64,000 bases of DNA, taken from the NCBI GenBank assembly GCA_015233195.1, contig JADFYE010000007.1, positions 8,684 through 72,683 on the forward strand, given 5' to 3'. How positions within the stretch are numbered: the stretch's first letter is position 1; each line of letters begins with the position of its first letter. Of this stretch, positions 1,361 to 64,000 are shown one piece after another. A model generated the notes under the pieces. That model saw nothing but the letters and a program-made list of their open reading frames with translations, ran no database searches and was not told the DNA's origin. Position numbers and translations under genes: made by a program. The DNA comes from Candidatus Omnitrophota bacterium (GTDB lineage: Bacteria; Omnitrophota; Gorgyraeia; Zapsychrales; Zapsychraceae).

Positions 1361-1529
1361 CTGGAAAGTCATTCATATGTTTAGAATTCATAAGAAATTA
1401 GTTATAGCATAAGTATTTGATTTTGGAAAGTAACCGTTTACTTCAAACCCTACTTTCCCCCTTATTTTAGGTAAATATATAATTTATACTTTATATGTAG
1501 TGTTGAATAGTTTTGAAGGGGGTAAAAAG

Positions 1530-4500
1530 ATGGGGCAAGTTTTTAAAAAATTCATATGTTGTTTAACACTAGTTATGTTTATATTTACTAGTGTTACTCC
1601 GTCTTATGGTCAAAGCGTGTTGAGCGTTCCTGCGCCAACTACTTTAGTTCAGCTTAGTCAGCCGTTTAATCCTCCAATGCTTACAGGTATCAAGGTTCAC
1701 ACAGACAACCCGTTTAGATTTGAGTTTATTTTGGACGCAGGAAATAATAATGATAAAAATAGCGTAGGGGCACGATACTTCGTGCCCGAATCAGCAGATA
1801 TAAAACAAGAAGCTAATCGCTTGATTAAATATTTCCTCGCCTCACTTACTGTCCCTGAAAAAGATTTATGGGTTAACTTATCGCCTTATGAAAAAGACCG
1901 CATTGTGCCGGAAGCGTTTGGTAAGACTGAAATGGGACGAGACCTTTTGGCACAGGATTATTTATTGAAACAACTTACAGCATCGCTTATGTATCCGGAA
2001 GGGGAGATTGGGCGAAAATTTTGGGATAGAATTTATGCAGAAGCTGCTCAAAAATTCGGTACTACTGATATACCAGTTGATACATTTAACAAAGTCTGGA
2101 TTGTGCCGGAAAAAGCAGTGGTGTATGAAAATGCTGAAGCTGGTACGGCATACGTTGTTGAGAGTCATTTGAAGGTGATGACGGAGAAAGATTATAAAGT
2201 CATTCCTTCGCGTACCGCTCAGGATGACAACACCAATAAAATTATAAAATCAGTCATTATTCCCGCGCTTGAACGCGAGGTTAACACCGGCAAGAATTTT
2301 GCCCAGCTTCGCCAAGTCTATAACTCACTCATCCTCGCTACTTGGTATAAAAAGAAAATTAAAGAAAGTATTCTCTCCCAGGTGTATGTAAACAAAAATA
2401 AAGTCGTAGGCGTAAATATAGACGATACCAAAGCCGCAGAAAAAATCTGGGCACAATACGTCGAGACTTTTAAAAAAGGCGCGTACAATTACATTAAAGA
2501 AGAATATGATCCGGTTAATCAAAAAATCATTCCTAAAAAATATTTTTCCGGCGGGTTTACAGCTTTGAATTTAGACGAGGCAATGATAATAGAATCAAAA
2601 GAAGTCCCGTATGATCCCGATGATCCCAATAATCACAACCAATTACAAAAAATAATTATGGATTTGCTTCCGCGCGATACGCCGCCGTTTACGCCTCTAG
2701 CAAGTGTTACTCCAGTGTCAATTAAATCTATACCGCCAATTCACGCACTGGAGCCGATTCCAGCAACCAATCCTTATGCAGGGGCGGTCGTGGTATCAAA
2801 CATAGAACAAGCAATTAAAAACGAAACACCAAATGTTGTTAATTTTACTCCTCAAGTCACGCCTAAAACAAAAAAAGATAAGTTAAATGAAAAATTAGAG
2901 GCATTGCTTGGGATATCCGCTAATGAAAAGCTTAGAAGTTTTATTAGTGACATGCTAAACGAATTATCTTGGGCGGATAATTTTGATTCATTTCTTATTT
3001 CGCAATCAAAATTATTAAGGAATTTACTTTTAGAGATTGGTTTTACATTTTTCGATTTACCTTTAACTCAAAGGCTTCTGGCGTTGGTGATTGAGTGGGC
3101 AATTAATTTAGGAGAAATTAATATTGATCAAATAAATTGGTTTGATGGTTTTTACACCACAAAACCAGTTTTTGCAATTGCAACTACAGCTTTGTCTGGT
3201 TTAGGTGACATAACCAAAATTGACATGGTCATACAAGGGATAAATCAGGAGCTCGAAAAATTGGGAATAAAAGGAGCTAAATTTAAAGTGTTAGCTTTAA
3301 TAAAAGATAAAAGCAGGATTGATATTTTTAAAGACAAACTTCTTGAGATGAAGTCTTTAAACGTTACCTTTGAATTTGTTGAGGATATTATACCTGAAAA
3401 CTCGCCGTTACTGGCTGATGTAGACGCGTTGATCGCGCTGGTTGAGCCGGTAACAACATTTGTAAAATTTGATGAACATCGCTCTCATGCCAGGTCTTCG
3501 CCACTTTTATGCTGGACAATAAATGAATATGATAAGGATATTAATCCTAATACTCGAGACACAGCGTTTAATTTCACAAATTTAAATACTGGATTTGATA
3601 GCCGTAGTATAGGTTTTTTTATTAATCCTTTCGCTGTAGGTTTGTATAACCAAAATTTAGGATTAAATGTAGAAGGTAGAATACAACAAAAAGAGGAACT
3701 TTTACGTCAATCTCTCAGTGAGATCGGGAATAAAATTAACGTACAGCCAATTAATGTAGAGGAGAAAGCCGCACAAGCGGCTGCGACAACTTGGGGATTT
3801 GTTTATATGCATAGGGACGGAGGGCAATATTTGAGGAATTTATTCCAGTATTTTTCAGAACAAAATATTACGGTATTTACTTTTTTTGGGGCTAACAATA
3901 GGTGGGAAAAAGATATAGATGAATTTGTAAAGTTTAAAGTCATAGTAGACGCCTATCGTTTACCAATTGAGATTTATGATTTAAGCGCAGATCCTAACCA
4001 AATTAAGACGATCGATTTTTCAAAACCAGTAATCCGGGTTATCAATTTAGGGGTACGAGATTTGACGACTAATATTCGTTTTATGGCTGCTTCTGATTTA
4101 CCAGTTGGAGTAACCGGAGATGAGAGCTTTGCCGCCGCAGCAACATTGAGGCTGCCATTTGTTTATGAAATGGCTCCTTGGAAATGGGAGTTAGCTTACA
4201 ACATTTCGCAATGGATGCGCCGTATTAATGGAGAACAAGGTAAGGCAAGTAAATTACTTTGGAATTTTATTATTAGGGAGACAGATAGCGCTGAACAGGA
4301 TTTTTTATGGGGCAACTCTCCTAAAAAATATGATGAATTTAAAAGGTTTGGAGATTTTGTGGAAAGCCGACCGCTTTATCCTGATTTGGTTCGGAAAATG
4401 TTAAGGACCTTAGCTTTTTTGCATTTAATGCAGGATAGACAAAACAAGGGTGTTCCTGCAAGTAAAAAAGCATTAGTCGGGGCTTATAATTTTTGGACAA

Positions 4501-7004
4501 AATGTCGGGATTTCTTAAGGCAGACCTTTCAAAGCGGGGATGAAAAATTAAAAAGCTATAAAGTTTATTTAGATTCAGAAAATGATCAGGCGATGCTGCA
4601 ACAAAATAGTGCTAAATTTCTTAGTGAAGCAGACCAGAAAATGTTGGGTGATTTTATTTTGAAGGCTAATGATGGGCGTAGATACAAGTTATTTTTTTAT
4701 AAAAAGCCGAGCAGTGAGGGAAGCTATAAAATTATTATTCGTGAAATTGATCAGAAAGATCAGGTGATTAGAGGACGAAGGAAAGCTGGATATATAGTGA
4801 TATTTCCATTTAATGAAAAAGGCTATAGAAACAGGAATGGTTTTTTTCAATTAATTATCGAAAGATTTGTTTTATTTCAAAAATCACAACAGGGAAAAAG
4901 AATTAGTAGTTCATTTTTGGAAAATTTGCCAAAAGGAACATCATTGCGAGGGAAAAATATCATCAATGAGGCTACGATAGATCAAATGAAAGATGAAGTT
5001 TTTGCTAAATTAAAAGCTACTGCTTCAGATGATGAACTTGTGCGCCTTGAAGAAAACGAACGTTATATTAATAGGGGAAGCGGGAGAGGTAGGGTTGAAA
5101 GTACAGTTCGTTTTTTTATGAATTATCAAGAGGATAAAAAGGTTGATCTTCATTTAAGTGAGATTTTCAGAAATACTCCAATAGGGAAATCATTGGGTTA
5201 TGGCGGTTTTGAAATATCGGATGTGGTAATTGGGGAACAATATATGGGTAGCTTCTATGTGGCTGAATTATCGTACATTGCTCTTAAACCAGTTGATCAG
5301 GCGATGAATCAACAAGAGATCATAATTAATGAAGAGCTTTCAGTAAAAACATCAGATGTTTTTAATGTGCGTTTAAAAGATAATCCTCAAGAAGGAATTC
5401 TGCAGCCGGCAACAGTTGATCGTCGGGAATTTTTAAAAACTGCTGTGGGACTTGCGGCTATTATGGCTTTGCCGGGCTTTTTAAGAGCGGCAGAACCTAA
5501 AAAGAATTTATTACCTGCCGGAAAAAGCGAACCAACCCTTGCTAAGGCGCGGCAGATTGTTTTAGATCATTTAACTGATATTCTTCACTCAGGTAAAATG
5601 TGGACCAATATTCCTTCAACAGAATATTGGCAGGATAATGTTTTTAAAGGCGATAAAACAATGTATTTGTTTGCAATGGACGATATTGAAATTGCGCTGA
5701 AAGCGGGGTTAAAGCCGTATAATGCAGGAGAAAGTTTGAATGCAAAAGAATTCGCCCGGTTAGCCATTCAGGCGATAAAGGAACAGACTGTTGAAGAAAA
5801 ATTAGATAAGTTTTTTTCAGGCAGTTGGTCGAGATATATGGTTGCCTTAGCGAATAACAGTGAAAATATAGAAATTTATGCGGAAGTTATCCGTCAAAGA
5901 GCTAAAGATATAGATCCGATTTTGGGCGCATTGGTTGCTCAATTGGCAGATAATACCAAGGATTGGCAGGTCAAAGATATAGAAAATGTATGGCAAAAAT
6001 TTAATGATTCATTTTTAATACCAAAAGGATATTATGCCAGCGTTTCATCAGCAACGAATAATCTTAAACATCACAAGTTTTATTTCGCGCTAATTTATAA
6101 GATTGAATCCCGGGAGCAGACAGCTTTATCTTCTGGAAGAAAAATCGAAGTGTTGATAGCGCGAAGGCTTGATATTGTTAATTTTGCGGGAAGCCTAGGG
6201 CATACGCAAAAAGGGTTTGACCGGATATTTATTGATTTAGATTCTATCGATTATCAGATAAAAACATTGGCAGGTTATTCTAGAAAAGATTTAGTATCTG
6301 ACGGTGAGAAAGTTTCAGAGAAAGATTTAATTAGTATTGAAAGCTGGGTAAGACAATTCAATAGCAGAGAGAATTTAAAACAATTAATTGTTGATGATAC
6401 CAAAATGCATGAATTGGCGCATAAGCAGTATGATGATCTGAAGAAAAATTTGACAAAAGGTTTTGGCATATATCAATCGAATTTTGATAATCTTCGTGCG
6501 CGAGATCCTCAAGGCACTGATATTATTCAATCTGAAATTTATGCATATCTGACTGAAATCAAGAATGGGAATTTGCCGGGCTTGTCAATTTTTATCCTAT
6601 GGCGAAGTTTTATGAAGCAAGTCCCGACAGCGGAATTTTTTGCCGGATGTTTTATTTTAAATCAATTAACAGGCGATGAGCTGAACCCTAAAAACGGAAT
6701 GCAGCATGTTTTTGAGAGGGTGGCTGAGCTTTTGAATATGCCTAAAATAGAAATTTCAAAAAAAGCAGAAAAAGTGTTACAAGAATTTTTCGCTGATAAG
6801 GCGATGAACATAAGCGATCACACCGGTGGTATTGATTTCACTGCTGATAAGACGCCTTTGGAAATTAAAAATATAGGTAAAGATATCAAATTCAATATAG
6901 ACGCTGCAATGCTGCAGAAACTCCAAAATACTACAGGGTTTGAGCCATTAATAATTGACATCCAGCCAATGACAGATCTAAAAGCTTTTTTGGAATTGAA
7001 ATAG
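1530..7004 (+). CDS. Giant exported modular protein, paralog 1 (~1824 aa), function unknown
   Basis: Long ORF (track 1500-7004). The ATG at 1530 follows gaagggggt (SD) and opens a signal peptide, MGQVFKKFICCLTLVMFIFTSVTPSYGQ. The N-terminal ~350 aa are shared with 21252-28415 and 61639->64000. Confidence 0.85.
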   Translation: MGQVFKKFICCLTLVMFIFTSVTPSYGQSVLSVPAPTTLVQLSQPFNPPMLTGIKVHTDNPFRFEFILDAGNNNDKNSVGARYFVPESADIKQEANRLIKYFLASLTVPEKDLWVNLSPYEKDRIVPEAFGKTEMGRDLLAQDYLLKQLTASLMYPEGEIGRKFWDRIYAEAAQKFGTTDIPVDTFNKVWIVPEKAVVYENAEAGTAYVVESHLKVMTEKDYKVIPSRTAQDDNTNKIIKSVIIPALEREVNTGKNFAQLRQVYNSLILATWYKKKIKESILSQVYVNKNKVVGVNIDDTKAAEKIWAQYVETFKKGAYNYIKEEYDPVNQKIIPKKYFSGGFTALNLDEAMIIESKEVPYDPDDPNNHNQLQKIIMDLLPRDTPPFTPLASVTPVSIKSIPPIHALEPIPATNPYAGAVVVSNIEQAIKNETPNVVNFTPQVTPKTKKDKLNEKLEALLGISANEKLRSFISDMLNELSWADNFDSFLISQSKLLRNLLLEIGFTFFDLPLTQRLLALVIEWAINLGEINIDQINWFDGFYTTKPVFAIATTALSGLGDITKIDMVIQGINQELEKLGIKGAKFKVLALIKDKSRIDIFKDKLLEMKSLNVTFEFVEDIIPENSPLLADVDALIALVEPVTTFVKFDEHRSHARSSPLLCWTINEYDKDINPNTRDTAFNFTNLNTGFDSRSIGFFINPFAVGLYNQNLGLNVEGRIQQKEELLRQSLSEIGNKINVQPINVEEKAAQAAATTWGFVYMHRDGGQYLRNLFQYFSEQNITVFTFFGANNRWEKDIDEFVKFKVIVDAYRLPIEIYDLSADPNQIKTIDFSKPVIRVINLGVRDLTTNIRFMAASDLPVGVTGDESFAAAATLRLPFVYEMAPWKWELAYNISQWMRRINGEQGKASKLLWNFIIRETDSAEQDFLWGNSPKKYDEFKRFGDFVESRPLYPDLVRKMLRTLAFLHLMQDRQNKGVPASKKALVGAYNFWTKCRDFLRQTFQSGDEKLKSYKVYLDSENDQAMLQQNSAKFLSEADQKMLGDFILKANDGRRYKLFFYKKPSSEGSYKIIIREIDQKDQVIRGRRKAGYIVIFPFNEKGYRNRNGFFQLIIERFVLFQKSQQGKRISSSFLENLPKGTSLRGKNIINEATIDQMKDEVFAKLKATASDDELVRLEENERYINRGSGRGRVESTVRFFMNYQEDKKVDLHLSEIFRNTPIGKSLGYGGFEISDVVIGEQYMGSFYVAELSYIALKPVDQAMNQQEIIINEELSVKTSDVFNVRLKDNPQEGILQPATVDRREFLKTAVGLAAIMALPGFLRAAEPKKNLLPAGKSEPTLAKARQIVLDHLTDILHSGKMWTNIPSTEYWQDNVFKGDKTMYLFAMDDIEIALKAGLKPYNAGESLNAKEFARLAIQAIKEQTVEEKLDKFFSGSWSRYMVALANNSENIEIYAEVIRQRAKDIDPILGALVAQLADNTKDWQVKDIENVWQKFNDSFLIPKGYYASVSSATNNLKHHKFYFALIYKIESREQTALSSGRKIEVLIARRLDIVNFAGSLGHTQKGFDRIFIDLDSIDYQIKTLAGYSRKDLVSDGEKVSEKDLISIESWVRQFNSRENLKQLIVDDTKMHELAHKQYDDLKKNLTKGFGIYQSNFDNLRARDPQGTDIIQSEIYAYLTEIKNGNLPGLSIFILWRSFMKQVPTAEFFAGCFILNQLTGDELNPKNGMQHVFERVAELLNMPKIEISKKAEKVLQEFFADKAMNISDHTGGIDFTADKTPLEIKNIGKDIKFNIDAAMLQKLQNTTGFEPLIIDIQPMTDLKAFLELK
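1764..1789 (+). repeat. GTAG-headed hairpin repeat, family A, inside the paralog 1 CDS (in frame, encodes VGARYFVPE)
   Basis: gtaggggcacgatacttcgtgcccga has stem GGGCACGA/TCGTGCCC. It matches the reverse complement of 61754-61779 at 25 of 26 nt. The paralogs lack ~10 aa at this position. Confidence 0.8.
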
Positions 7005-7061: not shown

Positions 7062-7646
7062 ATGAAAAATAAAAATATTTATATTATAGCTGGTCCGAAT
7101 GGGGCGGGAAAAACAACTTTCGCTGTAAAGTTTTTGCCTGATTATGTTAAATGCCCTAACTTCGTAAATGCGGATCTTATTGCTCAGGGGCTGGCTCCAT
7201 TTTCTCCTAATACAGCAGCTATTAAAGCGGGGAAATTGGTTCTTAATCAGATTGATAATTTTGCTGCGCAAGGCGTGGACTTTGCTTTTGAGACAACACT
7301 TTCTGGTAAAACTTATTTGCGCTTGTTTAAAGCGTTGAAAGCAAAAGGATATAAATTGCATCTATTTTTTTTATGGATACCGGATAAGCGGCTGGCTTTG
7401 GCAAGGATTAAAGATAGAGTTCAAGCGGGAGGACATAATATTCCTCCTAATGATGCCCGGCGAAGATTCGTACGCAGTATTTATAATTTTTCTGTGGTTT
7501 ATCGTTTTGTGTTTGATTTTTGGATGTTATTTGATAATTCAGGTACTACGCCTAGACTAATTGCTCGAGAAAAGGATTGCGAACTTTATATTGCTGATAA
7601 AAAGTTATTTGGTATAATTGTTCGTATTAAGGAGATAATTGAATGA
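7062..7646 (+). CDS. Zeta-toxin-like P-loop kinase / AAA ATPase (COG4185-type)
   Basis: Walker A motif in IIAGPNGAGKTTF. The overall pattern ...FVNADLIA...FAFETTLSG...GYKLHLFFLWIPDKRLALARIKDRVQAGGHNIP is typical of the zeta-toxin family. Confidence 0.7.
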   Translation: MKNKNIYIIAGPNGAGKTTFAVKFLPDYVKCPNFVNADLIAQGLAPFSPNTAAIKAGKLVLNQIDNFAAQGVDFAFETTLSGKTYLRLFKALKAKGYKLHLFFLWIPDKRLALARIKDRVQAGGHNIPPNDARRRFVRSIYNFSVVYRFVFDFWMLFDNSGTTPRLIAREKDCELYIADKKLFGIIVRIKEIIE

Positions 7647-21033: not shown

Positions 21034-21251
21034 TTTTTTCCACTTATTTCTCCCCCCATTTTCTTCATTTTTTCATTTCTCGTCGGTAATATATAATATA
21101 TAATATTTTAGGTAAACGGTTTCTCTGTAACCCCTTGCAGCCCTTGTTTTTTGGAAGTTTTGTGGCATATTTGGGGTAGATTTATAAAGGAGGGGCAAGT
21201 CCCTTTATAACGGAAAAGATATATTTGATAAATTATTTAAAGGAGAACGTT

Positions 21252-24200
21252 ATGTTCCGATCTATTTATTTTAAGTCTTGCGCGATTACAGTGTTGATCG
21301 CGTTTCTTATGACAACCGTGTTTCAGACGACAGGCTTTGCCCAAGTGGCAATGTATATGCCTGCGGTTGGCACACAAGTAATGCCCTCAGCATTTTATGA
21401 ACCAGCTAGTGCAGTGGGTATGCAGGTTGATCCTGTAAATCCGTTTCACTTCAATTTCTTCATTGACCGCGGTCAAGACCCGTTAGCCGGTGAAATTGAA
21501 AAGACTGAATATAAAAAATTAGTTAAATATTTTTTAGCCGCATTGACCATCCCTGATAAAAACCAATGGGTCAACCTTTCGCCTTATGAACATAACCGTA
21601 TAGTGCCAACTGATTTCGGTGATACTGAAATGGGTCGCGATCTTTTAGCCCAAGATTATCTTTTAAAACAGTTAACTTCTTCACTTATGTATCCTGAAAA
21701 AGAAATCGGCAAGGTATTTTGGGATAAAATTTACGAAAAAGTCTACGCTAAATACGGACAGAATGCAGAAGTGCCGGTTAATACTTTTAATAAAGTTTGG
21801 ATTACTCCGGATAAAGCGGTTGTGTATGAAGACGGTGATAAAGTTTGGATTATGGAAAGCCATTTGAAGATTATGTTAGAGCAGGATTATATGGCTTTAG
21901 ATAAAAATAAAGACAATTCCCGTTTTGGTTTATCAGCTAATAACAATACTAATTTAAGTGAAACCAGCACTGCCTCGTCTCAAATTGTGCGCGAGATCAT
22001 TGTACCTGCGATTGAAAAGGAAGTTAATACAGGGAAAAATTTTGCTTTATTGCGTCAAGTTTATAAGTCTATGATTCTTTCTGCTTGGTTTAAGAAAAGA
22101 CTTAAAGATCATTTATTATCTCAAGTATATAAAGATAAAGATAAAGTTATAGGCGTGAATTTAGATGATAAACAAGCTAATGAAAAGATTTATCAGCAAT
22201 ATATAGAGTCTTTTAAGACTGGTGTGTTTGACTATATTAAGGAAGAGTACGACCCTGCAAGTCAGACAGTTATTCCTCGTAAATATTTCGCGGGTGGGGG
22301 CGATTTTGCTATGTTAACTACGGATATAGTGAATGTTGTAACTCCGCGATCAGCAACTCCTGCGCAAAGAGCAACATTCGCAGAAGCAGTTAAAGGACTT
22401 GATGGTCGTATAGATATATTAAGTGCTTTGTTTACGGAAAATGATCGGGAGGCTATTGCTGCTACTGCTAAATACAAAAAAGCTCTTGAGACAGTACAGG
22501 CAGTATTGCCTCCTGAAGTGATAGCACATTTAAAGCAGTCGATTATAGATCAGTTAGCAGCAGAGGATGTAAATTTTTCAGAACGCCAAAATGCCATTGA
22601 AGCTGCATTGGTTTTAGCTGTAGCACAGTGGATAGATTTAAATAATAGCTTACACCGTAAAGATGTTGTAGTTATGGATAAGAACGGTAAATTAGCAGTG
22701 GTATCGACTGAGGTGTTATTTAAAAATACACCAGCAGAAATTAATATTGATGAATTAACTAGTTTGGTAATGGGCGGTATCAGATTTTACGCGCATTACG
22801 GTGATGCCGGACTAGCATTAGCTAATAATATAAATTTTGTGTCTGCTATCCAAGCTATGAATCGGGTAGAAGAAAGAGTTATAAGATTAGAAAAAGAGAC
22901 TGATTTGAGTAAATCCGAGGTCTTAATAAGTCAGTTGGAAGATCATTACGACTTGTTTAGGAAGTATTCGGATTTGGTTGTAAAAAATCAGGAACAAGTT
23001 GAAAATGCTTTTGCTGGAAATAAGCAAGTTATTTATCAGTCTGTAACAATAAGGCAGATGTTTAGGAGTTTTGAAAATAATAAATATGATTTAGGCAGAC
23101 GTTCGGGAAAATTATTTCAAAGAATTGATGCTTATAAAAGAACTGCTAAATCAACGTCTAGAACTTCAACAGCTTCGTCTACTACTGGAACTGATGAACG
23201 TACTGCTGAACAAAAAGCTATGGACGCTTGGACGGTAGCTATCTCGCCGATCTTAGATTCTAAAGAGACGGTAACTCCTGAAAAATTAAATCAATTGGCA
23301 GCTCAGATTGCAGATATGGTTTGGGCGCAATTAACACCAGATCAGCAAACTCAATTACCACGACCAGAATTAGAAGGTAAATTAGCAGCTGCTTTAGGAC
23401 AAGTTTTAGATGAATACCAAGCAAAACCAGAGCAGAAGGCTGAAGTAACTGATCTGAAAGTTTTAATACAAAAACTTATTAGTATTTTATTCCCGCAAAA
23501 AGAGTCTGAACCTGCAACTAAACCAGCGGTAAAGGTAGTTGATCTAATAAAGAAGTTGAGTGGATTCGCTAAAGCTGGAAATATGGATGAAAGTGACGTT
23601 CAGTTATTTTTAGGTTTGTTGGATCAGGAAACGTTTATCAGCCTATTCAATAAATATCAGGCGTCTGCAATATATGATGCAATAAAATTTGTAATGAAAA
23701 ATTTGCCTCAAGTGCCAGATGAGGAATTAGTTAAAGCTATTGTTGCAGCAATTAAAACAAAAATAGAACCTGCAGGTAAATCAGAAGAAGAATTAGCTGC
23801 AGAAAAAGCTGCAGAGCAAGCCGCCGCCGCAGCTCAAGCAGTTAAACCAAAGTTAGGAATATGGGGAAAACTAAAAGCTGCAGTAAGAAATGGATATGCG
23901 AATTGGGCAGCAGGAAGACAAGCTAAAGCCGAATTAAGAATGCAAGTTAAAGCCGCAACAGTTACCTGGAAAGAAGTTGCTAGAACCTACCACTTAGATT
24001 ATAAATTTGAATCAGGAACAGCTGGAGATAAATGGGTAGACCAGTTAATGGTTCTTTCTGAAATTCAAAAAAGTGGAGTATCTCGAACAGATCTGTTGGA
24101 AGTTGTAAAAATTACGCTGAATGACGAGTTTATGAAGAACAGGAATAATCTTGAAGGGTCATTCTTATATATTTATAACGAAATTTTGCTAAACATAAAA

Positions 24201-27200
24201 TATTCTATATTACGTGAAAAGGTGTTTTTACAATATTCTGAAGTAATTAATGATTCAGCAGAAAATAAGGTTGAAGCTGTAGCGGATAATATTATTGAAA
24301 CTTTTAAATCTATAGGGTCTAGTCTAGAAATTAATAAACAAATATTAATCGATAACATTAAAGCTAATATTGCTGAACAACAAAATACGATTAAATCAAT
24401 TCCTGAAAATCAGTATGATGCTGTCTATAATCAAGGGTTTGCGGAGTTGGTACGACCGTTGATAGAAGCAGACGCTGCTATGGTTGTAGAAGCAGACGAA
24501 ATGACTGATCTGTTGGTTGCACTTGAACAAAGAGGGATTGTAGCTGATGAGAAAACAATCGCGGAAATTGTTGCAAATATGCCAGAAGTTGATGAACAGC
24601 TAAAAGATTATATTGGTACTGATATTTTGGCTGGTTGGACTATTATTGCTTTAATAAATGGACAAAAAGAAAGTCCGAAACCCGCTGTAACTCCTAAGCC
24701 AGCAGAGGTAGCACCTTCAGCTCGTAGTTTAGTAGAAGGCAGGATAAACAAATTAGTTGGTCAAGAGAGGGTAGATGTATTTTTTGGTTATTTGAGTCAG
24801 CAACCAACGTATAATCTCATATCAGACCACAATTATTCGGAAAATGAAATAAAAGAAGTGATACAAGCGTTACTTACAGCAGGAAAAGAAGTGACCGTGG
24901 TTGGTGTTGTAATGCAACTTATAAGAAACCGACAAGCGCTTATACCAGAGCAATTTAAAGCATTTGTTAATGGTATAGAACAATTAATACCAAACCAATA
25001 TGTAAATCGTAGTGCTTTATTAAATGATTTTTTTGATACTAAAATAAGTCCTCAAAATAAGGAAATGTTAGATCAGCTTTGGGCGGCTTTTGCTGCAGAA
25101 CCTGAAGGACAACAAATGGGTCTTACTCCTGAGGAGGCTAAGGATGCGGTAATAAAAATATTGCTTGATCCTACTAAAACAAAAGATTTTGAAGAAATGT
25201 TAATTAATTTTAATAAATTTCATAGCGAGGTTTTTGCTGCTGCAAAAGCAGAGAGAGCTAAATTACCTCAGAAGTCAGAAAAGTTAAATCAACTTATTGA
25301 TAATTTTTTAGCTCAAACCAAGAGCGTAAAAGATTTTATAAAAGACAATCAGACTTTATGGAATGATTTTATAAACGAGCTTAAAAATTATTATCAGGGA
25401 TCACCGGTGCTGGATATAAAAACGGCTTCTGATGTTGTAGAATACATTTTGGATATGGATTCTGCACCAGCGAGGTTTAAGGAGGATTTTCCAGCGTTTT
25501 TTGAAGCGTTTTTAAAACAATTAAAAGAGGGTGTTCCTGCTGTAAAAGCGGCACGTACACCAGAAGAAGTTTTTACTCAAGGAATGGAAGATTTATTAAT
25601 AGCTGTTCAAGCGGTAGAAAAAGATAGACCAGGAAACGGAGTAATAGTTATAACAGCTTCTAGAGTGAAGAACTTTTTACCGTACTATATGTTAACTGAT
25701 GATAATGTGTCAACTGCAGTGGTTGCTTTAAGGAAGTTCTTTACGGCAAATAAAGCTAAAGCTAAAGCTGACGAGCTGGAAAAGATAAAAGATTTAAAGT
25801 TTTTTAGTTTATTGGGAAAATTTGATAAATCAGAAGTTGATGTACAAAAACAAAATACTGTAAATGTGGTTATAAACGCAATAATATCGAGAATGGAAGT
25901 AATTGATATAGTTGCCCAAAAGGAAAAGTGGGAAACTAAAGATATAATAAGTGAAAGATTGCGTTCAAAAGATCAAGTATTGTCAAAGTCTGCTGGAGTA
26001 GAATTAATAAACCAGATAATGACCTATATTCAAGAAAAAGGTATGCAGCTTACAGAGCAAGAGGTGATTGATGCAATAAAAAGTATTTTTACTTCTGCAG
26101 AAACTACAGAAATGGAAGGCTTTAAGACTAATTATTTAGAATTTTATAAATTAGTGGCTCAACAAGCTATGAAAGACGCGGCCATGATTGTTGTTCCAGA
26201 AAATGTCACAGAGATTATAAGTCTTCTTCGTCAATTATGGGATGGTACAAATATTAATCCTTCCGACCAAGACATTAAGGATGTTTTGGAAAGTATGACA
26301 ATGCCTGCTGGTCTAACGCAGGATAATGATGTTATTGTTGGTATGCTGGCGAATATGTTTTTACAAGCTCAGGAAGCAGGAAATCAACCTGCTGGACAGC
26401 CATCATTATCAAATGATTTAGATGGTTTACAACGCTCTGTAAATGCAAATTCTAAGACTTGGAAAGAAAGAATGGCGCAAGTTGGGCGGTGGGCATTAGG
26501 AGCTACAGGGTTAGGAATGGTTGTGGCAGCGGTTTTAGGTGCAATTGGGTTTTTTAAAAACGTACAACCAGTTGCTCCGGAGGCTGAGAAGCCAGCGGCA
26601 GAGCGCACATTTGATGTTAGTAGATCAAATGCATTAAAAGGTGCAATAAAAGATGGATTGACAGGAAATAACGCAAAAAAAGCAGTTCTTGATTCTTTGA
26701 AAGATAGATATGCAGAATCAGGCACAGCATTTCAGCCGGCAAAGGTAGATGCTAAGGCTCAAGGAATCGCAGATGCTCAATTTGATATTTTACATGCTCG
26801 CAATAGCGATCCAATGTTAGGCAAAAGCTATACTGATGTAGATGGAAAAAAACATGAAGGGCGTAATGCATTCAAAACATTTTTGAGAGACGCTAAGGCG
26901 TCGGGATTTTTTGCTAATATAACGGAAGCTTTTTGGGATGGTATTAATGGGTTAAATGAGGATCAACAGAAAGAATTTTTAGCTGAAATGGCAGCTATTC
27001 AAGGTCAGGTAAAAGAATTATCAGACGGCTTGATAAAAACTTTTGGCGCAGAGCTCGCAGCTTTGCAAGCAGAAGGTCCAAATAAAGAAAATCAGCAGAG
27101 GATACAGGGTCTGAAAGATAGTATCGCTTCATTAAAAGAAAAAAATGATGAAAGTCCAGATGCGATTGTTGGCAAATCTTCAGAGTATTGGCTTACATTA

Positions 27201-28415
27201 AATCGCTTAAAAGAACTTGCAGAGATTTCTAATAAAATGGGAGTTGTAGCAAATATCACTACAGAAGCTTTAGTTCAAGCTGAAGACGCTGGAACAACAA
27301 AAAGTAGTCCTGGTAAAGCAGTGATTTTTTCAAGAGTTTTTGAGGAGGGAACCACCAGCCCTGCAAAAACAGCCGCGGGTAACGCTACAATAGTATATGA
27401 CACACAAGTTCAAGTGGCTAACAATGGTGCGCCGTCTGCATATAAGTATGTTGCAGGGGCAGGTCAAAGATTAAAGGGAGTATTTAATTCCGTAACAGGC
27501 GCAACTTATTCTTTATTGGATAAAGGCGGGAAGGTTGTTACAGGCATGGGCAAAGGATTAAAAACTCTTGCAGGGGTAAAACAAACTACAGCTGGACCAG
27601 TTACTCCAGAAGTCAGTGCTAGGTTGAATGCTTCTTCTAAGTGGATGAAAGCACTTTTAGCTCAAGCAAGGATTGATATTAATGAAAATAATTTTGCTAA
27701 TGTGGCTTTAGCTGATGCAGTACGGGACAGACCCGAACCTGTAAATGTAGGTAGAACAAATCCTTACGGTATAACGGATGCTGATGTTACCAGATTATTA
27801 ATGGCAGTAGGTTATATGCCGGATCAAGGATTGACTCTCGATGATATGGAAGCTATTGTGCATAATGGCAGTGATGAAGATGCAAGATCTCTTTATGAAA
27901 TTGTTTTTGGTGCGCATGTGGTTTTAGCGGGTAATAGCCTTAAGGTTGTTGAGTCTTTTGGAGAGCAGGGAGCAGTTACATTTGAAACACCTGATATAGT
28001 TGCTGTAGGTAGAGGACTAGTTTTTAGAGAAATTTCTAACCCTGGAAAGTCAAAGAAAGAAATACAGAAAAGAGTTGGTGCGATAACGCCAGCCCAGGTG
28101 AGAGACGCTTTATTGGAGGCTATAAAGGAAGAAAGGGCAAAGCGACCAGCAGATAGAGCTATGTTTATCTTTGGTGAGGAAATTAGTTTTTATCCGCAAG
28201 ATGATCCAGTCGGTGGTATCGACATGGATTCAGCAATGTTGAACTTGCAGATTAAACGCGATCCTAATGGCGTACCATTGCCAATGAATTTCCAGGATCC
28301 GGCAATGATGCAGAATTTAAAAGGTTTGATGCCGGTTATTATGGATATAACTAATATGCCGTCGAGTATGCTGCCGAATTTATCAGCAGCAGGTACAGCG
28401 CCGAATCAGGCATAA
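21252..28415 (+). CDS. Giant exported modular protein, paralog 2 (~2387 aa), function unknown
   Basis: The ATG at 21252 follows aaaggag. The signal peptide is MFRSIYFKSCAITVLIAFLMTTVFQTTGFAQ. It shares the N-module with paralogs 1 and 3 and the C-terminal tail with paralog 1. Confidence 0.85.
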   Translation: MFRSIYFKSCAITVLIAFLMTTVFQTTGFAQVAMYMPAVGTQVMPSAFYEPASAVGMQVDPVNPFHFNFFIDRGQDPLAGEIEKTEYKKLVKYFLAALTIPDKNQWVNLSPYEHNRIVPTDFGDTEMGRDLLAQDYLLKQLTSSLMYPEKEIGKVFWDKIYEKVYAKYGQNAEVPVNTFNKVWITPDKAVVYEDGDKVWIMESHLKIMLEQDYMALDKNKDNSRFGLSANNNTNLSETSTASSQIVREIIVPAIEKEVNTGKNFALLRQVYKSMILSAWFKKRLKDHLLSQVYKDKDKVIGVNLDDKQANEKIYQQYIESFKTGVFDYIKEEYDPASQTVIPRKYFAGGGDFAMLTTDIVNVVTPRSATPAQRATFAEAVKGLDGRIDILSALFTENDREAIAATAKYKKALETVQAVLPPEVIAHLKQSIIDQLAAEDVNFSERQNAIEAALVLAVAQWIDLNNSLHRKDVVVMDKNGKLAVVSTEVLFKNTPAEINIDELTSLVMGGIRFYAHYGDAGLALANNINFVSAIQAMNRVEERVIRLEKETDLSKSEVLISQLEDHYDLFRKYSDLVVKNQEQVENAFAGNKQVIYQSVTIRQMFRSFENNKYDLGRRSGKLFQRIDAYKRTAKSTSRTSTASSTTGTDERTAEQKAMDAWTVAISPILDSKETVTPEKLNQLAAQIADMVWAQLTPDQQTQLPRPELEGKLAAALGQVLDEYQAKPEQKAEVTDLKVLIQKLISILFPQKESEPATKPAVKVVDLIKKLSGFAKAGNMDESDVQLFLGLLDQETFISLFNKYQASAIYDAIKFVMKNLPQVPDEELVKAIVAAIKTKIEPAGKSEEELAAEKAAEQAAAAAQAVKPKLGIWGKLKAAVRNGYANWAAGRQAKAELRMQVKAATVTWKEVARTYHLDYKFESGTAGDKWVDQLMVLSEIQKSGVSRTDLLEVVKITLNDEFMKNRNNLEGSFLYIYNEILLNIKYSILREKVFLQYSEVINDSAENKVEAVADNIIETFKSIGSSLEINKQILIDNIKANIAEQQNTIKSIPENQYDAVYNQGFAELVRPLIEADAAMVVEADEMTDLLVALEQRGIVADEKTIAEIVANMPEVDEQLKDYIGTDILAGWTIIALINGQKESPKPAVTPKPAEVAPSARSLVEGRINKLVGQERVDVFFGYLSQQPTYNLISDHNYSENEIKEVIQALLTAGKEVTVVGVVMQLIRNRQALIPEQFKAFVNGIEQLIPNQYVNRSALLNDFFDTKISPQNKEMLDQLWAAFAAEPEGQQMGLTPEEAKDAVIKILLDPTKTKDFEEMLINFNKFHSEVFAAAKAERAKLPQKSEKLNQLIDNFLAQTKSVKDFIKDNQTLWNDFINELKNYYQGSPVLDIKTASDVVEYILDMDSAPARFKEDFPAFFEAFLKQLKEGVPAVKAARTPEEVFTQGMEDLLIAVQAVEKDRPGNGVIVITASRVKNFLPYYMLTDDNVSTAVVALRKFFTANKAKAKADELEKIKDLKFFSLLGKFDKSEVDVQKQNTVNVVINAIISRMEVIDIVAQKEKWETKDIISERLRSKDQVLSKSAGVELINQIMTYIQEKGMQLTEQEVIDAIKSIFTSAETTEMEGFKTNYLEFYKLVAQQAMKDAAMIVVPENVTEIISLLRQLWDGTNINPSDQDIKDVLESMTMPAGLTQDNDVIVGMLANMFLQAQEAGNQPAGQPSLSNDLDGLQRSVNANSKTWKERMAQVGRWALGATGLGMVVAAVLGAIGFFKNVQPVAPEAEKPAAERTFDVSRSNALKGAIKDGLTGNNAKKAVLDSLKDRYAESGTAFQPAKVDAKAQGIADAQFDILHARNSDPMLGKSYTDVDGKKHEGRNAFKTFLRDAKASGFFANITEAFWDGINGLNEDQQKEFLAEMAAIQGQVKELSDGLIKTFGAELAALQAEGPNKENQQRIQGLKDSIASLKEKNDESPDAIVGKSSEYWLTLNRLKELAEISNKMGVVANITTEALVQAEDAGTTKSSPGKAVIFSRVFEEGTTSPAKTAAGNATIVYDTQVQVANNGAPSAYKYVAGAGQRLKGVFNSVTGATYSLLDKGGKVVTGMGKGLKTLAGVKQTTAGPVTPEVSARLNASSKWMKALLAQARIDINENNFANVALADAVRDRPEPVNVGRTNPYGITDADVTRLLMAVGYMPDQGLTLDDMEAIVHNGSDEDARSLYEIVFGAHVVLAGNSLKVVESFGEQGAVTFETPDIVAVGRGLVFREISNPGKSKKEIQKRVGAITPAQVRDALLEAIKEERAKRPADRAMFIFGEEISFYPQDDPVGGIDMDSAMLNLQIKRDPNGVPLPMNFQDPAMMQNLKGLMPVIMDITNMPSSMLPNLSAAGTAPNQA

Positions 28416-29249: not shown

Positions 29250-29981
29250 ATGCAAAAAATAATCCCCAACACAAAATATCTCGGTAAGAATATTCAATGG
29301 TTCGGCGAGGTGTCGTCTACCATGGATATTGTTAAAGCACAGGCTGTATCCGGCGCTGTAGAAGGTTTGGTAATTGGCGCGGATAAACAGACTGCTGGAC
29401 GAGGAAGGTTTAACCGCAAATGGGAATCGCCTTCTAATACAGGACTTTATTTTTCGTTTGTCCTTCGACCGCGTTTATCCTCTAAAGAAATGTTTGTGGT
29501 TACATTTTTATCTTCTCTTGCAGTTTGTGAAGTATGCAGAGAGTTAGGTGTGAATGCTTCAATCAAATGGCCAAATGATGTTTTGATCGAGGGGAAAAAG
29601 GTTTGCGGGATTTTAACTCAAGCGGAATTTAAGAGGATGGATTTAGATTTTTTGGTGGTTGGCGTGGGATTGAATGTTAATACCTTGGAAAAAGATATTC
29701 CTGCCGGGGGATGTTCTTTATTGTCGGTCACTGGTAAGGAGTTTGACCGGGAAGAGGTTTTGGTAAAACTTTTGGATCGGATAGAATTTTGGTATGAGCG
29801 GGTAAAAGTTGAAGGCGTTGCGCCGGTTGTAAATTCGTGGAAAGGGATGTGTGTTACTTTAAATTCTCATGTTACAATAGCTGATTCAAATAAAATTATT
29901 GAAGGGTTAGCAATAGACATTGCGGACGACGGTGGTCTTTTGGTAAAACAAAATAATAATGAAATTATCAAAATTTTGTAA
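29250..29981 (+). CDS. birA: Biotin-[acetyl-CoA-carboxylase] ligase (group I, no HTH)
   Basis: GRGRFNRKWESP motif and KWPNDVLIEGKKVCGIL. Confidence 0.85.
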   Translation: MQKIIPNTKYLGKNIQWFGEVSSTMDIVKAQAVSGAVEGLVIGADKQTAGRGRFNRKWESPSNTGLYFSFVLRPRLSSKEMFVVTFLSSLAVCEVCRELGVNASIKWPNDVLIEGKKVCGILTQAEFKRMDLDFLVVGVGLNVNTLEKDIPAGGCSLLSVTGKEFDREEVLVKLLDRIEFWYERVKVEGVAPVVNSWKGMCVTLNSHVTIADSNKIIEGLAIDIADDGGLLVKQNNNEIIKIL

Positions 29982-61638: not shown

Positions 61639-64000
61639 ATGGCGCATCAGCAGAATTTTTTTATTAACCGGGGTGTATTATTTATTGTATTAGTTACTTT
61701 TTTTGTAACTAATATTATGCCGGTTTCGTATGCCCAGACTGTTATGCCGGTTATCGGGCACGAATTATCGTGCCCCTACAAATCTACCGTTTTTACACCA
61801 GTCTTGATTAAAGGCGTGACTGTTTATCCTAAAGAACCTTTGCGTTTTAACTTTATCGTCGATTCTGGCACATCAAAAGACGCGGATGATGCTATTAAAA
61901 AACAAGCGCAAAAAATGGTGAATTATTTTTTGGCTGCATTAACTGTTCCGCAAAAGGATTTATGGGTCAATCTTTCTCCGAATGAACCAGATAGAATAAT
62001 TCCGCAAGAATTAAGCAAAACTAATTTAGGCGTTGATCTTTTAGCGCAGGATTATTTGTTAAAACAATTAACTGCCTCGCTCCTGGATCCTGATGGAGAA
62101 GCAGGACGAAAGTTTTGGGAAGCGATATATGCGAAAGTATATGCATTACACCTTCCCCCCAACAAAAGTACGGGGGTGGGGAAGGGTAGGGAAGGGGGGA
62201 AAGATTTTGATATTCCAGCCGATATTTTTAACAAAGTCTGGATCGTACCGGAGAGCGCAACGATATACGAAAATGGCAATGGTTCGACAAGCTCACCAGG
62301 GGCTACGGTTTATATCGTCGAAAGTCGACTGAAAGTAATGACTGATGTTGACTATTCTGAACACCTTCCCCCCAACAAAAGTACGGGGGTGGGGAAGGGT
62401 AGGGTAGGGGGGATCACAGCAGATATAATAAAACAAATTATACTCCCTGAAATCGAACGTGAAGTTAATGAAGGCGAGGGATTTGCTCAGCTTCGCCAAA
62501 TCTATCACGCCTTGATTCTCGCTAAATGGTATAAAGAAACAGTCCGCAATAGTATTCTATCGCAAGTGTACGTTGATAAAAATAAAACTTCCGGCGCAGG
62601 TAATGTGGATCCTCGAGCTAAAGAGCAAATTTACCAGGAGTATTTGGCTGCTTTTAAAAAAGGAGCATTCGCGAAAATCAAAGAAGAATACGACCCGCAA
62701 GAGCAGAAAATCATTCCCAGGAAATATTTTTCAGGCGGATTTACTGACGATGGACAAATGAAAATGAAACTTGCAGATCAAGCCGCGCTAACAAAAATTC
62801 ATACGGGGCGCACATTTCAAATGCCGGTTAAACTTAATCCAGAAACAGACCGCGCCTCATTAGCCGAAGAAAAAGACTGCAAGGAAGCTTTAAAATGGAA
62901 GAGAGCAGTTCCGGGAATTAAATTTTGGACGGCAGATCAGATCGTTCAGAAGAGTAAAGAAGCACTTAAACGGAAGCCAGTAAATCTTGGTTTTTTAGAG
63001 GCCAGTATTCTTATGTTAGATGAAGAGGACAAGAGGAGAGTTTTGCGTGAAATGCCGAAGTATGGACATGATCTCATTTTAACAGGACGAATGCTGGATT
63101 TGGCTAGTCGAAGGACTATGTTTGATGATGATCAAAAATATAGATTTTTTAAGTCATTTTTGGTTTTTGATGAGATGTGGTCAAAGGTCAAATCTATAAA
63201 AGGTATGACGGGCAGATTTGAATTTCTTTTTCCTAAGTCGGTCAAATATTATGCTCACAATTATGATGGAATTAAATCAGCGGATAAATTTTTAGCCATT
63301 GCTAAAAAAATAAAACTTTGGGGACACGGGTTTGGTAATTTTCATATGAGTGAGGCTGCTTATCATGGGGGTTATACGTTAGATCATCAATGGGCGATGC
63401 TTGAGGTAATGTTGACCCGGTGGGAAAGAGGAGCATTTGAAGTGTTTAAAGATTTTGGTTCATTTTTATCAACAGAAGGATACGGTCCGTATTTTATGAT
63501 TGACCGGAATCATAGTAGGAAGAATGTTTCGTTGGAACAATTAAATCAAGAAGCTTTATTTGTTGTGCCGCTGGGTTTGGACCTGGAATTTTTCCGTCAG
63601 GGATTATTGGTTGCAGTTGAGAAAAATTTGATCTCCCGTGAAAAAGCAGTGGATGTGTATACCCGTATTGTGACGATGAAGGAAGTGGTGGATTATGAAA
63701 CAAAAGCGGATGCTCGCGCCATGTTCACGCCTGAGTGGCATAGTAAGAGGAATATTGATAAGCCGGTTAAAGTAAATTCAAAAATAGATCGCGCCATGAT
63801 AATTGATGATGAGGATATGATACATCTTCAAGAAAAATATAAGAGAATGACCGCGCTTGTAAAAGTGTTTGGCGAATATCTCCCTGAAACCTACACAGGT
63901 CAGAAAATAAGAGTGGCTGAACTCCTATATAAAATGGAAAAAGAGATGCCGGAGCTGATTAAGAAATTATCAATGTCGGCTGATCTTAAAGGTGAGATAT
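61639..64000 (+). CDS. Giant exported modular protein, paralog 3 (first ~787 aa; continues beyond the right edge; absent from the ORF track)
   Basis: I translated frame 1 by hand from the ATG at 61639 and found no stop to position 64000. The signal peptide is MAHQQNFFINRGVLFIVLVTFFVTNIMPVSYAQ. It shares the N-module with paralogs 1 and 2 (LWVNLSPNEPDRIIP, DLLAQDYLLKQLTASL, FNKVWIVPE, EREVNEGEGFAQLRQIY, IKEEYDPQEQKIIPRKYFSGGF). Confidence 0.85.
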   Translation, partial: MAHQQNFFINRGVLFIVLVTFFVTNIMPVSYAQTVMPVIGHELSCPYKSTVFTPVLIKGVTVYPKEPLRFNFIVDSGTSKDADDAIKKQAQKMVNYFLAALTVPQKDLWVNLSPNEPDRIIPQELSKTNLGVDLLAQDYLLKQLTASLLDPDGEAGRKFWEAIYAKVYALHLPPNKSTGVGKGREGGKDFDIPADIFNKVWIVPESATIYENGNGSTSSPGATVYIVESRLKVMTDVDYSEHLPPNKSTGVGKGRVGGITADIIKQIILPEIEREVNEGEGFAQLRQIYHALILAKWYKETVRNSILSQVYVDKNKTSGAGNVDPRAKEQIYQEYLAAFKKGAFAKIKEEYDPQEQKIIPRKYFSGGFTDDGQMKMKLADQAALTKIHTGRTFQMPVKLNPETDRASLAEEKDCKEALKWKRAVPGIKFWTADQIVQKSKEALKRKPVNLGFLEASILMLDEEDKRRVLREMPKYGHDLILTGRMLDLASRRTMFDDDQKYRFFKSFLVFDEMWSKVKSIKGMTGRFEFLFPKSVKYYAHNYDGIKSADKFLAIAKKIKLWGHGFGNFHMSEAAYHGGYTLDHQWAMLEVMLTRWERGAFEVFKDFGSFLSTEGYGPYFMIDRNHSRKNVSLEQLNQEALFVVPLGLDLEFFRQGLLVAVEKNLISREKAVDVYTRIVTMKEVVDYETKADARAMFTPEWHSKRNIDKPVKVNSKIDRAMIIDDEDMIHLQEKYKRMTALVKVFGEYLPETYTGQKIRVAELLYKMEKEMPELIKKLSMSADLKGEI
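61754..61779 (-). repeat. GTAG-headed hairpin, family A, inverted orientation, inside the paralog 3 CDS (encodes IGHELSCPY)
   Basis: The reverse complement of tcgggcacgaattatcgtgcccctac is gtaggggcacgataattcgtgcccga, which matches 1764-1789 at 25 of 26 nt. Confidence 0.8.
62149..62199 (+). repeat. 51-nt hairpin + G-rich tail repeat, family E, copy 1, in frame in paralog 3 (HLPPNKSTGVGKGREGG)
   Basis: caccttccccccaacaaaagtacgggggtggggaagggtagggaagggggg, stem CCTTCCCC/GGGGAAGG. Confidence 0.85.
62362..62412 (+). repeat. Family E, copy 2, in frame in paralog 3 (HLPPNKSTGVGKGRVGG)
   Basis: It is identical to copy 1 except for one nt (a/t), lies 213 nt downstream, and is in the same codon phase. 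Confidence 0.85.

Follow-up and report, generated by a model that had tools for sequence, protein, structure and literature searches.

Do the long proteins of the Omnitrophota act as single chains or in pieces? These bacteria are widespread, mostly uncultured nanobacteria with a presumed predatory or parasitic way of life, and they are noted for very long multidomain proteins. The question is raised here by a window of 64,000 nucleotides (nt), the whole stretch of DNA that was analyzed, from a Candidatus Omnitrophota bacterium (GenBank assembly GCA_015233195.1, contig JADFYE010000007.1, positions 8,684 to 72,683 of the forward strand). Three long open reading frames (ORFs) of this window, referred to as paralogs 1, 2, and 3, carry a recurrent four-residue motif, D-x-A-M, for which a sequence-only reading had listed as possible meanings a linker signature, a processing or autoproteolysis site, and the fossil start codons of fused genes. 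We found that D-x-A-M is the joint between modules that are arranged head to tail, that the cargo modules are complete, formerly independent proteins, and that selection on the motif acts on the peptide rather than on the DNA.

The three ORFs belong to an unannotated superfamily that is very large, numbering thousands of proteins, and is restricted to the Omnitrophota. The family plan consists of an N-terminal signal peptide, a conserved N-module of ~350 amino acids (aa), a variable cargo array, and a conserved C-module of ~65 aa. The first ~350 aa of paralog 1 share ~60% identity with the N termini of at least 3758 proteins, and all 77 genomic loci found in the N-module search came from Omnitrophota metagenome-assembled genomes (MAGs) or from obviously mis-binned ones, with several copies per genome. 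The cargo behind the N-module is highly diverse and consists mostly of enzyme-like domains (methyltransferases, GNATs, HATPase_c, HAD, PRTases, M48, ABC1, radical SAM, adenylate kinase, PGK, and others). The C-module, with the consensus ...GGIDLxxxxMxLQxQNxGxxIKFHxDPAMLxQLQNAPGFVPVIINIQPMxxLxxFLG, ends almost all of the shorter members checked (up to 1250 aa); an exhaustive phmmer search yielded 1380 cluster representatives that match it (E ≤ 1e-3), and it forms the C-terminal end in every match listed. Paralogs 1 to 3 matched no Pfam, NCBIfam, PADLOC, or PHROGs family, the lone Pfam match in a scan down to E ≤ 0.1 being a sub-threshold TAT_signal in paralog 1. A sequence-profile search of the PDB with the alignment of N- and C-modules gave 0 matches, and literature searches for the family or for the D-x-A-M motif found nothing. 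The superfamily is defined by N-module, C-module, and delimiter, and it has no Pfam or NCBIfam model.

D-x-A-M (written D.AM where patterns are compared) occurs far more often than composition predicts. The sequence-only reading had guessed a chance expectation well below one site per protein; the proteins' own composition gives 0.15 for paralog 1 and 0.42 for paralog 2, which hold 5 and 6 sites, respectively (Poisson P = 6e-7 and 5e-6). Over 3000 shuffles, the counts averaged 0.14 and 0.41 and never attained the observed ones. Two or three sites per protein are homologous (those at the N-junction and in the C-module) and hence not fully independent. This objection is removed by the family-wide counts, where the enrichment holds as well: 239 pooled members contain 599 sites, against 33 expected. 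Among the 120 best homologs, 411 sites were observed versus 19 expected, and 113 of these 411 fall within aa 300 to 420. D.AM was also the sole gapped three-residue pattern with substantial counts that was strongly enriched. Controls were not enriched: the other ORFs of the window hold 4 sites versus 1.4 expected, and across the 77 loci, 520 non-family ORFs hold 21 versus 20.0 expected, while the family ORFs there hold 223 versus 18.6.

The motif is also sharply defined, as seen in the enrichment of each residue across the 239 members. At position 1, D is enriched 18x and N 4.7x, with S at 1.6x, E at 1.0x, and T at 0.8x. The x position favors Q, H, R, and A and nearly excludes V, I, T, D, and G, whereas position 3 accepts A only. 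At position 4, M is enriched 18x and Q 2.4x, with every other residue at or below 1.1x; D.AV and D.AL, which GTG and TTG can encode, stand at 0.9x each.

Several properties place these sites at module boundaries. Where Pfam domains are clear (14 homologs), a domain envelope encloses 1 of 42 internal sites, compared with 7.2 expected. Among 256 cargo blocks that are common to different members, 7% have an interior site (28% for random positions). Block edges are enriched instead: 23% of the blocks have a site no more than 45 aa from their start (10.5% for random positions), and 22% have one equally near their end (8.5%). The spacing of sites is bimodal: intervals measure either at most 50 aa, corresponding to tandem sites and mini-modules, or at least 100 aa, and just 7 of 300 fall between 50 and 100 aa. 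The flanks are linker-like, with T, P, S, A, G, and N overrepresented and W, Y, H, F, and L underrepresented, and tandem sites 7 to 15 aa apart occur in disordered linkers. Together with the low AlphaFold confidence (predicted local distance difference test [pLDDT]) and the module bracketing described below, Pfam avoidance, block edges, and flank composition support the proposal of a linker signature at module boundaries.

All 12 D-x-A-M sites of the three paralogs were found at exactly the coordinates first given for them, and they account for 5 of the 6 A-M dipeptides in paralog 1 and for 6 of the 10 in paralog 2. The sites and the modules that they separate are listed here in window positions; model residues are those of an AlphaFold model of paralog 1 that covers aa 1000 to 1834.

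1500 to 7004, + strand: paralog 1, 1834 aa counted from GTG
1530 to 2573, + strand: N-module of paralog 1, with a signal-peptide-like N terminus and a conserved ~320-aa domain, ending in YFSGG (2541)
2574 to 2585, + strand: DEAM, junction of N-module and module A in paralog 1
4584 to 4595, + strand: DQAM, junction of modules A and B in paralog 1, in a segment with pLDDT <50 (model residues 17 to 47)
4593 to 5303, + strand: module B of paralog 1, ~237 aa, a cargo block common to other family members
5295 to 5306, + strand: DQAM, junction of modules B and C in paralog 1, in a ~100-aa disordered stretch (model residues 233 to 335, pLDDT 21 to 34)
5415 to 5474, + strand: internal Tat-like signal of paralog 1, RREFLK at 5421 plus a hydrophobic stretch, 39 aa past the DQAM Met
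5502 to 6794, + strand: folded core of module C in paralog 1, with a conserved HExxH (HELAH at 6408)
6795 to 6806, + strand: DKAM, junction of module C and C-module in paralog 1
6804 to 7001, + strand: C-module of subtype 1 in paralog 1, GGIDF (6825) ... DAAMLQKLQN ... PLIIDIQPM
6900 to 6911, + strand: DAAM within the conserved C-module of paralog 1, family consensus DPAMLQQLQNAPGF
21225 to 28415, + strand: paralog 2, 2396 aa, with N-module, mostly helical unique cargo, and a C-module of subtype 2
22302 to 22313, + strand: DFAM, end of the paralog 2 N-module
24471 to 24482, + strand: DAAM, internal junction of paralog 2
26175 to 26186, + strand: DAAM, internal junction of paralog 2
28152 to 28163, + strand: DRAM, junction ahead of the paralog 2 C-module
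28227 to 28238, + strand: DSAM inside the subtype-2 C-module of paralog 2, in the context GGIDM-DSAM-LNLQIKRD
28296 to 28307, + strand: DPAM inside the subtype-2 C-module of paralog 2, not kept in other subtype-2 members
61639 to 64000, + strand: paralog 3, which leaves the window after 787 aa, with an N-module to YFSGG (62725), then cargo
63787 to 63798, + strand: DRAM, sole canonical site in the visible part of paralog 3

Paralog 1 is identical (100%) to hypothetical protein HQL25_03695 of a Candidatus Omnitrophica MAG, and the public protein (P0001) begins at ATG 1530. Its order is signal peptide, N-module, modules A, B, and C, and C-module, and its N-module contains many invariant columns in the family alignment. 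The first site coincides with the end of the N-module, as had been claimed: similarity between paralogs 1 and 2 stops at aa 359 of paralog 1, the D of DEAM, and at aa 360 to 367 of paralog 2, where DFAM begins at 360. Where the N-module of paralog 3 ends there is no canonical DxAM. In addition to its DRAM, paralog 3 has a near-variant, DARAM, at 63706 to 63720. Two finer claims of the sequence-only reading held in part. The resemblance between the ~70 aa that follow the two DAAM sites of paralog 2 is marginal (23% identity over 80 aa, E = 0.01 in a single comparison). The pattern of hydrophobic and then acidic residues after the Met is real for the MAG of the window, which has its own motif extension of two hydrophobic residues (8 of 18 sites), but is not a property of the family, in which two hydrophobic residues follow the Met at 38 of 617 sites (6.2%) versus 6.0% after any Met.

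The structure predictions agree with boundary placement. In the paralog 1 model, three of the four sites have pLDDT <50, and the block around the fourth (DAAM, model residue 802) averages 62. Only one residue separates the last helix of module C from DKAM, where pLDDT falls to <50. The whole-protein model of the homolog P0075 is poor (mean pLDDT 53), and its four sites fall in the lowest-confidence stretches. The sites thus lie in low-confidence linkers rather than inside domain cores, the placement that the sequence-only reading had set as a possible refutation. The ~430-aa module C itself (5304 to 6803) has pLDDT mostly >90 over model residues 336 to 766, a conserved HELAH, and a conserved Tat-like signal upstream. 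The paralog 1 model had no Foldseek match in the PDB at E ≤ 0.001, and a search for free-standing homologs of module C (query 5304 to 6803) returned one partial protein only. With neither a Pfam family nor a PDB fold match, module C is a possible new metallopeptidase-like domain exported by the Tat route.

Modules B and C of paralog 1 reappear elsewhere in other proteins, and each time they are bracketed by DxAM. Stretches homologous to module B were found at aa 879 to 1102 of P0008 (sites at 860 and 1128), 386 to 605 of P0019 (site at 623), and 406 to 623 of P0027 (site at 616); blocks of module C were found in P0004 (between sites at 1403 and 1924), P0006 (between 1189 and 1697), and P0002 (site at 1119). 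In the family alignment, the motif is kept at homologous junctions. At the junction of module C and C-module, for example, D[KQGA]AM or NQAM stands at the same place in 8 of 10 aligned sequences, and this junction motif persists between modules that are only 22 to 30% identical, while the surrounding linker varies in both length and sequence. The place ahead of the C-module that is held by DRAM in paralog 2 is likewise held by DLAM in L034, DSAM in L068, and DKAM in L058.

What do these joints connect? The cargo modules are complete, formerly independent proteins, including adenylate kinase, PGK, GAPDH, enolase, histidine kinases, methyltransferases, GNATs, and Tat or Sec pre-proteins. The Met of DxAM is the retained initiator Met of the downstream protein, and D-x-A is a tripeptide set 0 to 20 residues after the natural C terminus of the upstream one. 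For comparison we used free-standing proteins encoded by the non-family ORFs of the fetched loci. A free-standing enolase aligns over its full length to a module of locus L036, and its first residue projects 3 aa from the DQAM Met; the end of a free-standing GAPDH projects 5 aa before the next DQAM of the same locus. The C termini of histidine kinases project to between -6 and +4 aa from the D of DxAM (seven comparisons). Position 1 of the corresponding profile lies 9 aa after the Met for adenylate kinase and 20 aa after it for PGK, and D-x-A is part of neither ancestral protein. Hydrophobic stretches resembling signal peptides or transmembrane segments follow the Met within 70 aa at 26 of 487 sites (5.3%), versus 2.0% for other internal Met residues, and many of them are canonical Sec or Tat signal peptides from the Met onward (for example, DNAM-STRREFIGD... 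and DLAM-KAKTSRRDFLETS...). The Tat-like signal of module C scores below the cutoff of its Pfam model (PF10518 TAT_signal, E = 0.022, 15.1 bits, cutoff 22.7), and its twin arginine (RR-x-F/I-L/I) is kept in 9 of 9 homologs. No family gene was found naturally split at the motif; the splits seen were frameshifts, masked sequence, and one split away from the motif. We also observed that GAPDH, enolase, PGK, and adenylate kinase occur as modules in members that bear signal peptides (L036, P0087, and P0082), where cytoplasmic housekeeping enzymes are unexpected.

The motif varies between genomes in a concerted manner. Homologous junctions of module C carry the variants NQAM, DKAQ, and DNAQ. One MAG (CAZCLW..., loci L033, L038, and L050) has N-[PA]-A-M-L at 19 junctions in three paralogs and D.AM once, whereas the D:N ratios of four other genomes are 50:2, 23:0, 22:0, and 18:0 (Fisher p = 2e-14 versus CAZCLW). 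This MAG uses less Asn than the other genomes, so the switch runs counter to composition. A concerted switch at many nonhomologous junctions is what co-evolution with a single trans-acting reader predicts, and the genome-specific N-x-A-M variant points to such a reader. The N-module is unsupported as a candidate for this role: its residues show no substitution that tracks the switch from D to N, only conservative changes (I/V, L/M, L/I, and K/R).

Is the motif then a property of the protein or of the gene? Modules are clearly shuffled among proteins with the motif at both ends, and the wobble positions are mildly shifted (GAC 52% at sites versus 32% gene-wide; GCC plus GCG 72% versus 57%), as might be expected of a DNA-level junction left or used by cassette capture or recombination. 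The VENN region of CdiA, which is thought to aid toxin-domain exchange, is a comparable case. Synonymous positions nevertheless vary freely (GAC 52%, GAT 48%, and all four Ala codons are used), nucleotides beyond the three fixed codons carry no information, a 12-nt stretch in which four positions are free falls short of what homologous recombination needs, and both the D-to-N switch of one genome and the M-to-Q substitutions obey amino acid logic; we therefore consider a DNA-level origin improbable. The sites might instead be working internal translation starts that make each module separately from the long mRNA, since the Met matches ancestral start codons and the N termini of signal peptides. 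Shine-Dalgarno-like sequences, however, accompany 16 of 26 real ATG starts in the window (62%) but only 2 of 12 DxAM ATGs, and in the loci they accompany 14% of DxAM ATGs versus 21% of other internal ATGs. The flat counts of D.AV and D.AL, set against the enrichment of D.AQ, also speak against internal initiation, which offers no nucleotide-level explanation for the required D and A upstream and which we regard as very improbable. The variable synonymous codons and the missing Shine-Dalgarno sequences indicate that selection acts on the peptide. That the sites are the fossil start codons of fused genes was right insofar as the Met does derive from ancestral starts, as seen for enolase, adenylate kinase, PGK, and the signal peptides. 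The motif as a whole is not a fossil, given the ~18-fold enrichment of D, A, and M, its presence between modules of 25% identity, substitutions that follow side-chain logic, and the genome-wide switch to N. A functionless motif, whether a neutral relic of gene fusion or a product of composition or chance, is already contradicted by the shuffling and control tests (18- to 21-fold enrichment with flat controls), and it would leave unexplained the retention of the motif at homologous junctions amid variable linkers, the concerted genome-specific variants, and a D-x-A that belongs to neither ancestral protein; we give it almost no credence.

The two leading readings differ in whether the chain is cut at the motif or stays intact. 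We favor, with a confidence that falls just short of even, the reading that D-x-A-M is the cleavage or processing site of a polyprotein-like array. It fits best the concatenation of complete proteins, the sharp and genome-specific motif, and the native Met and own Sec or Tat signals that lie downstream of the joints, signals that would be hard to use in an uncut chain because that chain already begins with a Sec signal. According to this model, each genome would encode a factor that reads the motif in trans, most likely a site-specific endopeptidase cutting at or beside D-x-A|M. Cutting would free the modules as separate proteins with a native-like Met N terminus, in a maturation resembling that of polyproteins or multi-effector toxins. 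Nothing in our results points to autoproteolysis specifically.

A somewhat unlikely but serious alternative is that D-x-A-M is an uncleaved recognition or structural element, such as the start of a first helix, a hinge, or a motif bound by a chaperone, secretion adaptor, or modifying enzyme. In the AlphaFold models, a helix starts at the D or one residue later at several sites (model residue 802 of paralog 1, where helix H803-811 follows the D directly with pLDDT 53 to 62, and residue 677 of P0075), and at model residue 30 of paralog 1 a helix spans the site. The x position avoids the β-branched V, I, and T as well as G and favors Q, R, A, and H, which in combination with the helix starts is also compatible with a structural motif that begins helices. 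In the subtype-1 C-module, DPAM is embedded in a conserved segment, and a genome-specific switch would suit any trans-acting binder, not a protease alone. On the other hand, a generic helix N-cap would take S, T, D, and N alike, unlike the strong preference for D over S and T observed here. A structural role also leaves unexplained the strict Ala and Met ahead of unrelated folds, the tandem sites in disordered linkers, and the canonical export signals kept directly after the Met, including a twin arginine conserved in nine homologs. Beyond the helix starts, the x preference, and the embedded DPAM, further observations weigh against processing at the motif. Only about a quarter of the shared-block edges have a site within 45 aa, and canonical sites are missing altogether from 30 of the 239 members, which makes the motif common without being required. 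No protease candidate was found in the window or elsewhere, and the N-module shows no residue that follows the switch. Cleavage before export would leave the universal N- and C-modules, and the cysteine purging of modules that have no signal of their own, in need of a separate explanation.

This cysteine purging is a marked feature of the family. Cys makes up 0.12% of residues, versus 1.2 to 1.4% in neighboring ORFs (a >10-fold depletion), and the paralogs have 1 to 5 Cys in total. The GAPDH module of L036 (aa 829 to 1163) has retained the catalytic Cys (SCTTNA) alone, compared with five Cys residues in a free-standing Omnitrophota GAPDH. This gives the modules the look of competent catalysts from which dispensable Cys has been purged. 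The depletion and the lone catalytic Cys point to function or transit outside the producer's cytoplasm; possible sites of action are the periplasm, the cell surface, and the interior of a host or prey cell.

Taken further, these features raise the doubtful but consequential possibility that the Omnitrophota have true bacterial polyproteins, in which complete enzymes and pre-proteins (among them glycolytic enzymes, kinases, and Tat or Sec substrates with signal peptides of their own) are translated as one Sec-targeted, Cys-purged chain and cut at [D/N]-x-A|M by a dedicated protease whose specificity co-evolves genome by genome. If so, the motif would supply the "cleavage code" that has been missing for this phylum's large, and perhaps giant, modular proteins, and the freed modules could be effectors that use the Sec or Tat machinery of the host or prey. 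Confirmed cleavage would make this a new type of bacterial polyprotein system. A four-residue delimiter that brackets captured proteins in thousands of members is in any case a concrete, searchable hypothesis; it provides a rule for cutting long proteins into units for structure prediction, and the genome-wide N-x-A-M switch of one MAG is a comparative handle for finding the reader.

The C-module exists in a second subtype, found in paralog 2 (28152 to 28412) and common to nine fetched loci (L034, L043, L056 to L059, L063, L068, and L076). Its pattern, GGIDLNPALLDLQIKRDxxGVPLPxxQQP...GFxPVIxNIxPV, has no embedded DPAM of the kind seen in subtype 1. Paralog 2 stands out for the DSAM and DPAM within this module, and the DSAM position (28227) is not kept as DxAM in other subtype-2 members. 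The subtype-1 C-module (for example, 6825 to 6911) resembles an internal duplication with the unit h-D-h-x-P-A-x-M-x-L-Q-x-Q-N (GGIDLTPANMNLQTQN versus IKFHLDPAMLQQLQN). YFSGG-x6-DxAM, with which the N-module ends, is mirrored by DxAM-x8-GGIDL, with which the C-module starts. Proteins of 70 to 150 aa that consist of a C-module alone and start at the motif Met are most likely gene calls on contig fragments and were not counted as evidence for free-standing or cleaved products.

The neighbors of the paralogs in the window are housekeeping genes (LeuRS, BirA, AccA, RlmN, MurJ, BamD, LptE, UvrC, and purine synthesis), and no secretion or protease operon is adjacent to the paralogs there. The ORF directly 3' of paralog 1 (7062 to 7646) encodes a zeta-toxin-like kinase (PF06414, E = 5.5e-10), and the gene downstream of paralog 2 encodes a biotin protein ligase (29250 to 29981). 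GC skew is positive in all 2-kb bins, and nearly all ORFs lie on the + strand; the whole 64 kb thus appears to be leading strand and co-oriented. The N-module of paralog 3 contains two identical 43-nt in-frame insertions (62149 to 62191 and 62362 to 62404; CACCTTCCCCCCAACAAAAGTACGGGGGTGGGGAAGGGTAGGG) with an inverted repeat, CCTTCCCC...GGGGAAGG, and the translation HLPPNKSTGVGKGR. Both fall in loops that are variable among homologs, and the homolog P0024 has VIPAKAGIQ twice, apparently at the same two places. The insertions look like a small palindromic repeat element that is tolerated within a coding region.

How does this family compare with known systems? Within the same phylum, giant Omnitrophota proteins of at least 30,000 aa (Archaeovorin and Dockerin-type) have been described by West-Roberts et al. 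(10.1101/2023.11.21.568195), who propose posttranslational cleavage and call the cleavage points unknown, which blocked further analysis (10.1101/2023.11.21.568195). Neither the N-module, the C-module, nor DxAM is mentioned in the two papers on long Omnitrophota proteins, of which that report is one. The two groups share overlapping domains within one ORF (HATPase_c, HAD_2, HEAT_2, GGDEF, radical SAM, and GNAT), but paralogs 1 and 2 measure just 1834 and 2396 aa. The paralogs have no Pfam domains corresponding to dockerin or thrombospondin repeats or to the Archaeovorin architecture. Like cargo of the type IX secretion system, the family combines an N-terminal signal peptide with a module of ~65 to 80 aa that always stands at the extreme C terminus. 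However, the C-module is of low confidence and not a predicted β-sandwich, the phylum is a different one, and paralogs 1 to 3 had no NCBIfam or Pfam match to the C-terminal domain of such cargo (Por_Secre_tail models).

Polymorphic toxins carry demarcation motifs, such as VENN in CdiA and PxxxxDPxGL in Rhs proteins, the latter of which is also a cleavage site. As in these toxins, a short peptide borders a constant trafficking part and exchangeable cargo. Here, by contrast, there are several delimiters per protein, the cargo is internal, the extreme C terminus is conserved in the form of the C-module, and the DNA around DxAM is not conserved. VENN, DPxGL, and LYVD are all absent from paralogs 1 to 3, and no immunity-like gene lies downstream of the paralogs, whose neighbors are the housekeeping genes, zeta-toxin-like kinase, and biotin protein ligase noted above. 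Viral polyproteins have processing sites that co-evolve with their protease, as for Q|G of picornavirus 3C and the sites of potyvirus NIa. Like them, the family joins complete functional proteins in one ORF, and the junctions between complete units bear a short, sharply defined, and conserved motif with a genome-specific variant. It differs in belonging to a cellular organism with many paralogous arrays per genome that share N- and C-modules, and in that its processing is so far a proposal.

MARTX toxins of Vibrio and relatives have conserved ends, a shuffled array of effectors, unstructured linkers that serve as processing sites, RTX repeats, and a Peptidase_C80 domain. The family shares with them its large size and export, conserved N- and C-regions around a variable, shuffled, enzyme-like array, and unstructured linkers. 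Unlike MARTX toxins, which use type I secretion and a Leu-X boundary, it has a Sec-type N-terminal signal and a D-x-A-M boundary, and paralogs 1 to 3 lack both RTX (GGxGxD) repeats and Peptidase_C80 in Pfam and motif scans. Its modules, moreover, are entire ORFs with the initiator Met, and even signal peptides of their own, still in place, and cleavage is in its case a conjecture. Collectively, these comparisons suggest by analogy that the family works most like MARTX toxins or viral polyproteins and that its motif resembles the demarcation motifs of polymorphic toxins; D-x-A-M is a delimiter, and probably a processing motif, of modular exported proteins that form an undescribed superfamily.

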